A program made the translations under genes and the position numbers. Shown in pieces: positions 16,907-17,166 of a DNA stretch of 64,000 nt; the stretch's first letter is position 1, and the number at the start of each line of letters is the position of its first letter. Under the pieces are notes generated by a model. That model saw only the letters and a list, made by a program, of their open reading frames with translations. It searched no databases and was not told the DNA's origin. Source of the DNA: Eledone cirrhosa (taxonomy: Eukaryota); NCBI GenBank assembly GCA_964016885.1, contig OZ024756.1, positions 5,518,001 through 5,582,000 of the forward strand, written 5' to 3'.

Positions 16907-17166
16907 AGAAAGTGAACAACACAAAATATAACTACTCCATTACCAAAGGTTTCTGGCTCCCAGACAATAATAATATACGTCTGGATCGGTCGTCAGATAA
17001 CATCTCTGTCTGACGACCGATCCAGACGTATATTATCATTGTCCGAGATCCAGAAACCTTTGGTAATGGAGTAGTTATATTTTGTGTTGTTCACTTTCTA
17101 CTTAAATAGCTCTGTTCTATACATAGAGCACTCTATTTTCTTTCGCTTTTCCTTCGGAATTACCTA
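16907..17166 (+). mobile_element. PLE-type fold-back element, family B, with hammerhead at 17004-17071
   Basis: Arms at about 16907-16998 and 17008-17099. The ribozyme motif reads ctctgt-CTGACGA..GAAA-CC ttt GG-TA-atggag. The tail has GAGCACTC at 17126. Confidence 0.75.

Follow-up and report, generated by a model that had tools for sequence, protein, structure and literature searches.

The tails of Hydra-clade Penelope-like elements (PLEs) in the 64,000-nucleotide stretch of Eledone cirrhosa contig OZ024756.1 analyzed here (the window) probably carry a small conserved hairpin signal that tells the enzyme where to start copying. To judge from the sequence, this signal is most likely a hairpin-plus-flank recognition element of these PLEs rather than the plain palindrome GAGYRCTC as which it was noticed.

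The 8-mer GAGYRCTC was found 12 times as an exact match in the 64-kb window, compared with 1.23 ± 1.11 expected from 100 shuffles (maximum 4). The nine positions listed in an earlier note on this DNA were all exact (9/9), and its near-matches were borne out, with one mismatch at 2179 (GAGTACTT) and two at 11074 (GAGTACCT). Two further exact sites, absent from that list, were observed at 16537 (GAGTGCTC) and 29176 (GAGCGCTC). The exact site at 58202 was rejected as a chance occurrence, as the nearest microsatellite is >1 kb away and LINE endonuclease/RT remnants follow downstream of it. A decayed LINE with endonuclease/exonuclease/phosphatase, RVT_1, and zf-RVT domains occupies 57500-62400.

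The nine listed sites had been placed roughly 33-45 nt from the microsatellite, and we measured 33-44 nt from them to the first simple repeat on the 3' side. Positional enrichment was confirmed: 10 of the 12 exact sites lay 30-52 nt from a microsatellite, a zone that was set after the earlier range was known and that holds 11.7% of the eligible positions (binomial P = 2e-8). Dinucleotide repeats make up 14% of the window. When independent groups were counted, 5/7 were in this zone (P = 4e-4). None of the 63 other XYZ-YR-Z'Y'X' classes was enriched likewise, the next being ATA (12/54) and GTA (7/17).

With the motif cut out, 18 tails aligned inside groups and never between groups, as the description of dissimilar tails had implied; recent common descent therefore does not explain the motif. 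The 11 exact element-associated sites form six groups, and the nine listed ones form four (A, 17126/37448/39069; B, 20442/38714/49452/53966; C, 21525; D, 35348). The count of at least five tail types was nevertheless fair, because the near-matches and added sites bring in groups G, E, H, I, and F. The features were located as follows.

17109..17133, plus strand: family A hairpin, 5' strand GCTC(T) at 17109, GAGC 3' strand plus ACTC at 17126.
~17166, plus strand: family A long end, running into (AC)n.
16906..17166: family A head-to-head inverted pair, hammerhead cores at 17010 (plus) and 16996 (minus).
36296..37491: family A inverted pair whose short arm abuts (TA)n at 36296 and whose long arm carries motif 37448.
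36379 (minus) and 37342 (plus): hammerheads of the 36296..37491 pair.
38940..39109, plus strand: 5'-truncated family A copy, hammerhead 38953, motif 39069.
49417..49630: inverted pair of family B joined without a spacer; its long arm lies on the minus strand and has motif 49452 (sense GAGTGCTC).
53930..54109: family B inverted pair, motif 53966, minus-strand sense.
38666..38922: family B inverted pair, motif 38714, internal deletion in the short arm.
20406..20492, minus strand: distant family B tail with (TA)n on both sides, carrying motif 20442 with partner ACTT (U.G).
2098..2231: family C inverted pair, near-match 2179 (GAGTACTT).
13071..13266: inverted pair of family C with TAGTACTC as near-match at 13214 and a 1-nt junction spacer.
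21481..21539, minus strand: family C tail of ~58 nt carrying motif 21525, cut short within the hairpin and fused to a SINE.
10741..11118: inverted pair of family G with a hammerhead at 10996 and the near-match at 11074.
35305..35400, minus strand: family D tail adjoining the 3' side of a SINE, with motif 35348 and a 7-bp stem.
29133..29271, minus strand: family E tail, motif 29176 (GAGCGCTC), partner GCTC 88 nt upstream.
16537..16586, plus strand: group H tail, GAGTGCTC 42 nt from the A-run/(TA)n, with an ambiguous partner upstream.
13300..13722: inverted pair of family I whose near-match at 13358 (sense GAGTGCTT) lies 58 nt from (TA)n.
43793..45270: family F, in which the long copy, on the minus strand, comprises a Hydra-type endonuclease C-terminus, a 3' region of ~1 kb, and a tail of 168 nt.
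43919 and 43844: sites in this 168-nt tail, GCGTACTC (partner ACGC) and GAGTACCC, respectively.
45208-45270: inverted short arm of family F, 63 nt.
44994..45209, minus strand: remnant of a GIY-YIG endonuclease C-terminus of Hydra-clade PLE type (70 codons, 44994-45203), INWS...LC..E...LLNN...CRH.
21101..21453: another inverted pair of family F, with AAGTACTC as near-match at 21407 and a 160-nt tail.
41007..41034, plus strand: family M bulged hairpin 6 nt past the short end, GTTC/GAAC, then CACC, no palindrome.
55847, 31536, 2032, 16383, 18354, and 54977: candidate near-matches.

Several of these loci have neighbors or features of their own. The close family A copies (17166, 39109) end in (AC)n and not (TA)n, which suggests a family-specific target or an encoded repeat. 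A tail related to family I was observed at 48833. At 25525-26052, a tandem pseudo-LTR unit with a hammerhead at 25744 (minus strand) carries the near-match TAGCGCTC 16 nt 3' of the end of the upstream repeat, which is the tail position as expected. Family M (39288-41126) is young (93-97% identical) and consists of one short inverted arm and of ~545-bp units in tandem that have a Hydra-type hammerhead; no ORF was seen in it, and it is retrozyme-like. The tails of families C and D lie directly on SINE sequence (21481-21710 and 35305-35584), more probably through insertion into the SINE than as parts of a chimeric family. We take this ~190-bp SINE to resemble an octopus repeat. Hairpin-plus-GCTT matches at 18331-18361 (plus) and 54977 (minus), 86-88 nt from a simple repeat, are possible further families with longer tails.

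The ends show the PLE trait of pseudo-LTRs with head-to-head inverted copies and an optional tail. Head-to-head inverted ends and type I hammerheads are described as PLE hallmarks in the available text of three studies (PMC8557442, PMC4209133, PMC3846280). By script, a type I hammerhead core with stems I-III was detected in families A, B, G, I, and M, and no intact hammerhead in C, D, E, or F; an Rfam scan gave no hammerhead or other relevant family among the 150 of 200 matches listed, which were mostly microsatellite-driven miRNA. Stem III has 3-4 bp and the hammerhead layout is as in the Hydra-clade File S2, the one set used for this comparison (ACCTTTGGT, ACCACTGGT, ACAATTGT, ACATGT, ATATGTAT).

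The Hydra affiliation of family F was observed in its endonuclease remnant, which has CxxC and CxH around the conserved E and N and no CCHH, a Hydra-clade trait, and which by eye resembles the Hydra-1_Ajap C-terminus. A HMMER library search with this remnant returned 40 relatives (best E 3e-7), of which 31 have CxLCxxEK. The linker region is absent from the window; among the 40 relatives, the linker was CxCX5C (Hydra type) in 4 and CX2-5CxxC in 0. A word-indexed protein search with the 70-aa remnant gave nothing, no remnant of a PLE RT was found in the window, and Pfam detected no relevant family in six-frame read-throughs of the F and E interiors (12 frames). The 40 relatives match family F and no other place in the window, so that the clade of the other families rests on the hammerhead layout and the motif itself. 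On this sequence basis, with the endonuclease in family F only, the ends would belong to Hydra-clade PLEs. Naiad/Chlamys PLEs were ruled out by the presence of hammerheads and by the C-terminal endonuclease in F.

The motif appears to be a tail signal of the Hydra clade and does not extend to PLEs in general, as other hammerhead-bearing end types in the window are without it. Minimal-hammerhead ends at 31036 and 54125-54675 lack the motif; the latter is an inverted pair of ~510 bp with a hammerhead-like core TTGAAAA and a 35-41 nt tail, probably of another PLE clade. By eye, this core is of the U3-A8 type of Cervera 2014, as given in the accessible part of that paper (PMC4209133). An inverted pair at 51112-51571 with both ends flush with repeats has a hammerhead-like core with a 7-bp stem III at 51318 (minus) and no motif. 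Three related elements with a tRNA-like segment (13896-14125, 15842-16140, and 38380-38665; tRNA-Ser call at 14032-14104) contain no GAGYRCTC. Two of the three are head-to-head inverted in PLE style between (TA)n runs, with one longer arm, and they are possibly a tRNA-headed element moved by a PLE. At 11649-12164, inverted arms of 159 bp (99% identical) point into a central (TA)n, the opposite of PLE pairs. Hairpin plus CTAG ends at ~10700-10732 and ~17880-17912, both beside TA runs, presumably resemble Helitron 3' termini.

The motif was also observed in other phyla. By eye, 5/6 published Hydra consensuses (Craig 2021 File S7) carry it in the same position with 0-2 mismatches, two of them exactly. 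The end of Hydra-2_Ajap reads hammerhead, TATA, GCTC...GAGCACTC, 23 nt. Hydra-1_Ajap ends in ATATATT and begins with GCTC...GAGCACTC, with a second such unit 60 nt on, and Hydra-2_Amil has GCTC...GAGCACTG. Forms with two mismatches are ATTC...GAGTAGTT in Hydra-1_Amil and GCTC...GTGCACTT in Hydra-1_Crog, the latter with a U.U mismatch. The second stem differs in sequence among Ajap-1, Ajap-2, Amil-2, and Crog (by eye). No clear motif was seen in Hydra-1_Obim, the sole octopus consensus in File S7, which also has a fourth exact match immediately past the stop codon of Amil-1. In the available part of the Naiad/Chlamys files, 0/11 exact matches lay at a record end in an exact search from which line breaks hide ~1/10 of 8-mers, and the accessible portions of the supplements of PMC13282606 and PMC3846280 held no matching sequence. 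The conserved cis-signal in PLE tails that the earlier note had proposed is thus upheld, given that the tails are unalignable between families and that the motif recurs in coral, sea-cucumber, and copepod Hydra-clade consensuses.

The site is conserved, but the palindrome as its functional unit did not hold, because 8/11 exact element sites are non-palindromic at the centre. The sense-strand centres of these 11 sites are CA (3), TG (5), TA (2), and CG (1), with positions 4 and 5 of the 8-mer complementary in 3/11 sites and in 8/19 counted rows. Position 4 tracks an upstream base and not position 5. This upstream complementarity was observed in a blind test, in which the best upstream partner was picked from motif positions 1-3 alone. 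The base before this partner was Watson-Crick complementary to position 4 in 11/13 representatives, compared with 4.7 expected from shuffles (P = 1.6e-4). The two exceptions were 48833, with a G.U pair, and family E, where 88 nt separate partner and motif. The same test mirrored to the downstream side gave 2/13. By groups, the result was 9/10 (3.9 expected), or 7/8 minus two doubtful groups (2.9 expected, P = 0.002); the P values are inflated by the shared ancestry of families.

In 19 rows counted by script, the position 4 pair was G-C in 6 and A-U in 11, a switch that may represent very few events among families sharing ancestry; the 25934 row was kept in this count though its offset gave no stem. 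Pairing in columns 1-3 is circular, as the 5' strands were selected for pairing there. The 5' strands were not in register in MAFFT alignments, and pairs were therefore counted by script and no covariance model was used. Compensatory change was found in family F (ACGC/GCGT), where GAG became GCG together with its upstream partner and the downstream half is still ACTC. It was also found in family M (GTTC/GAAC), which has the hairpin without the 8-mer (GTTC-TGCA...TGCA-TT-GAAC) and whose hairpin was located via the hammerhead and short end, independently of the motif. In 7/19 rows, the best or equal-best fit was a second stem of 3-4 bp behind a 2-nt bulge on the 3' side, with no skip on the 5' side; at 2179 (family C), ACTC/GAGT is followed by a 2-nt bulge and a 4-bp second stem. 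The site at 21407 yielded no partner.

The downstream RCTY had an exact downstream partner in 1/13 representatives and thus appears unpaired; its conservation is what a DNA-site or dimer model could still account for. A descriptor built from the sites gave 21 matches, 12 of which lie 30-60 nt 5' of a microsatellite compared with 0.38 in shuffles, a count that is circular for its training sites. The folding energies were ordinary. Compared with shuffles, 1/11 segments 3' of the short end from motif- or hairpin-families reached p < 0.05, and no single hairpin was significant (lowest p 0.06). When wider context was folded, roughly half of the 22 element sites favored different pairings, among them 38714, 20442, 11074, 16537, and 43919. 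Sense RNA was more stable than antisense in only 6/14, so that folding energies do not set the strand, and the hairpin may act as RNA or as DNA.

Most segments with the motif form one of the two arms of a head-to-head inverted pair, with simple repeats on its flanks. A long/short asymmetry was observed in 11/11 motif-bearing pairs: the motif is on one arm, and the other arm ends before the hairpin. If the arms chose their ends independently, the chance of this would be about 0.01. The distance from the short end to the 5' strand of the hairpin was 1-6 nt (SD 1.7) in 7 families, and that to the 8-mer was 17-33 nt (SD 5.2); these are seven values with a TA ambiguity of ±3 nt, and the family A pair at 16906 (9 nt, not flush) was left out. 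The short arm of that pair stops 26 nt before the motif and 9 nt from the hairpin, with a 47 nt gap to the microsatellite. In 10/11 pairs, the short arm lies 0-4 nt from the microsatellite. In family G (10741..11118), the hairpin begins 0-1 nt past the short-arm stop, and at 49452, the partner ACTC is 16 nt upstream and the short arm of 49417..49630 ends 21 nt before the motif.

Five families have tails of 66-97 nt, and F has tails of 160-168 nt. The long ends mostly border on (TA)n; those of 17126, 39069, and 21407 end in (AC)n, and those of 53966 and 29176 run through (CT)n. Junction spacers were 0-11 nt in several pairs (0, 1, 11) and 128-1185 nt in four, according to which the second arm possibly arises by fold-back priming or by a second priming event.

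We favor, with moderate confidence, the reading that the hairpin and RCUY form an RNA handle for the PLE protein, with copying starting 33-58 nt downstream and at the UA step at the hairpin foot. The signal would lie in the tail just 3' of the pseudo-LTR and read 5'-RCUC-[second stem, loop, often 2-nt 3' bulge]-GAGY-RCUY-3', where GAGY would be the 3' strand of the hairpin and RCUY an unpaired, sequence-conserved flank. We infer that the hairpin forms on the element RNA and is bound by the RT-endonuclease protein, which would nick the (TA)n target. Priming of the cDNA would then yield the long end when it occurs 33-58 nt 3' of the motif and the short end when it occurs at a UA step 1-6 nt 5' of the hairpin. 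One long and one short end per insertion would yield head-to-head pairs. Any RNA ending in such a tail may be mobilisable in trans, which would fit the many ORF-less copies.

In line with the endonuclease site suggested in the earlier note, a dimeric PLE protein might instead bind the palindrome in double-stranded DNA, with the GIY-YIG domain cutting a TA step about two turns away to give the short end, a reading that we consider unlikely. The outer pairs of the 8-mer are well kept, 3:6 being G-C in 18/19 rows and 2:7 A-T in 16/19, and a free YR centre is typical of dimer sites. The available text on PAc adds that this protein is a predicted dimer and that the D. virilis tail is reportedly needed for endonuclease recognition of plasmid DNA (cited in PMC11167929). 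Nevertheless, a DNA palindrome leaves the upstream RCTC and its match to position 4 unexplained, its symmetry is broken in F, M, and Hydra-1_Crog, and the short end keeps its distance to the hairpin foot better than to the 8-mer.

It also seems improbable that the hairpin acts on single-stranded cDNA, where, after fold-back priming, synthesis would stall at its foot or the endonuclease would cut beside it, leaving the short arm. The 11/11 asymmetry and the short palindromic junctions do fit antisense fold-back, as argued in the accessible part of PMC3846280, and antisense folds are as stable as sense. Moreover, in bacteria, the GIY-YIG nucleases called Ssn cleave ssDNA at hairpins that have a conserved flank, according to the available text of PMC11893778. 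However, the hairpins are weak as DNA (mean -2.5 to -2.9 kcal/mol, three weaker than -1), four pairs have spacers of 128-1185 nt, and the wobbles at 20442, 53966, 48833, and in family A are paired on the sense strand.

The palindromic RNA dimerisation site suggested earlier, which would here link two transcripts to serve a dimeric enzyme or hammerhead, survived as energetically possible for most variants, yet we judge it quite improbable. The RNA self-duplex reached -6.4 kcal/mol or better for 8/12 8-mers and -11.9 for the family A 14-mer, and PLE hammerheads act as dimers according to the accessible part of PMC4209133. In contrast, the CA centre (family A, three Ajap sites, Amil-2) would create two C.A mismatches (-3.9 for the 8-mer), the F and G variants keep only 4 pairs, and GAGY would already be occupied in the hairpin.

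A transcription or translation signal is very improbable. The stretch would be the 5' leader between the pseudo-LTR promoter and the ORF in the full element, in keeping with the position of both Hydra-1_Ajap motif copies in the ~115 nt before the first ATG of the ORF and with PLE promoters in the pseudo-LTR (available text of PMC8557442); however, the motif is kept in ORF-less short families and is tied to both insertion termini. Absence of function, with chance and shared descent of copies producing the pattern, could appeal to the 11 exact element sites being only six groups and to the ordinary folding energies, but it is largely refuted and scarcely credible given the unalignable flanks between groups, the same placement in three other phyla, and P = 4e-4 after collapsing.

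The ends resemble published Hydra-clade PLEs in (TA)n insertion, in the hammerhead with a 3-4 bp stem III, and in the C-terminal endonuclease ending C..LC..E / N / CxH, as far as the available text of Craig et al. 2021 (PMC8557442) describes them. They differ in that a tail motif is not described there ('palindrom' gave 0 matches in the main text) and in that the tail given in the accessible part is 30-40 bp, compared with the 66-97 nt and 160-168 nt (F) found here. The Poseidon PAc system (Frangieh et al. 2024, PMC11167929) shares, in its available text, the optional 3' extension, the two termini, the stem-loop, and the AT-rich target. PAc nicks AT-rich DNA on both strands, and its RT starts at two internal stem-loop sites bracketing the tail (same portion of PMC11167929). 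Unlike the elements here, PAc belongs to a different clade, and its RNA in Fig. S1 is without GAGYRCUC (by eye, PDF text); the accessible part of that study reports no cross-family conserved sequence or structure.

According to the available text on Adineta vaga Penelopes (Arkhipova et al. 2013, PMC3846280), these also have head-to-head arms, palindromic junctions, and a tail on one arm, and they are mobilised in trans via terminal sequences. There, however, the palindromes lie at the inner junction and not in the tail, the tail is 31 bp, and the clade is Penelope/Poseidon (PMC3846280, accessible part). The PLE hammerhead stem III is likewise a short self-complementary sequence in PLE ends in the available text of Cervera and de la Pena 2014 (PMC4209133), and several Hydra hammerhead stems III read ACTC-N-GAGT (File S2). 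The motif here is separate from it, tens of bases 3' of the ribozyme and beyond the short end. In the literature searched, a conserved tail motif of Hydra PLEs was undescribed; Pyatkov 2004, Arkhipova 2006, Luense 2017, and the Repbase entries were outside its scope, and one literature search showed no 'Penelope' among the matches listed (30 of 82).

PLEs constitute 6.83% of the Octopus vulgaris assembly, with 190 families, according to the accessible part of the PMC13282606 supplement. How PLEs choose RNA and why the tail is optional are standing questions; only PAc works in vitro, with its binding motif narrowed to 172 nt. A short cross-phylum element with defined pairs and a tie to both termini makes PLE RNA choice testable by a few point and compensatory mutations, and it provides a nucleotide-level marker for placing ORF-less end fragments in the Hydra clade, of use where PLEs are this abundant. 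We propose only tentatively that a hairpin-plus-RCUY RNA element of 25-40 nt, common to cnidarian, echinoderm, arthropod, and mollusc Hydra PLEs, is the minimal recognition signal and fixes both termini. If this is true, the signal on any RNA would make it a substrate for (TA)n-targeted insertion by a telomerase-related RT, and, the hammerhead excepted, no cis-element conserved across phyla would have been defined for a PLE before it.

In 'stringent' LINEs, such as eel UnaL2 and R2, stem-loops in the 3' tail serve to recognise own and SINE RNA. These LINEs differ from PLEs in having non-LTR enzymes and a single 3' start, and the likeness drawn here is one of stem-loop form. As proposed for the Hydra hairpin, a small terminal RNA stem-loop near the priming site defines what is copied. 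PLE tails, two termini, and a stem-loop were already known; a conserved sequence-structure element in Hydra tails was absent from the literature searched.
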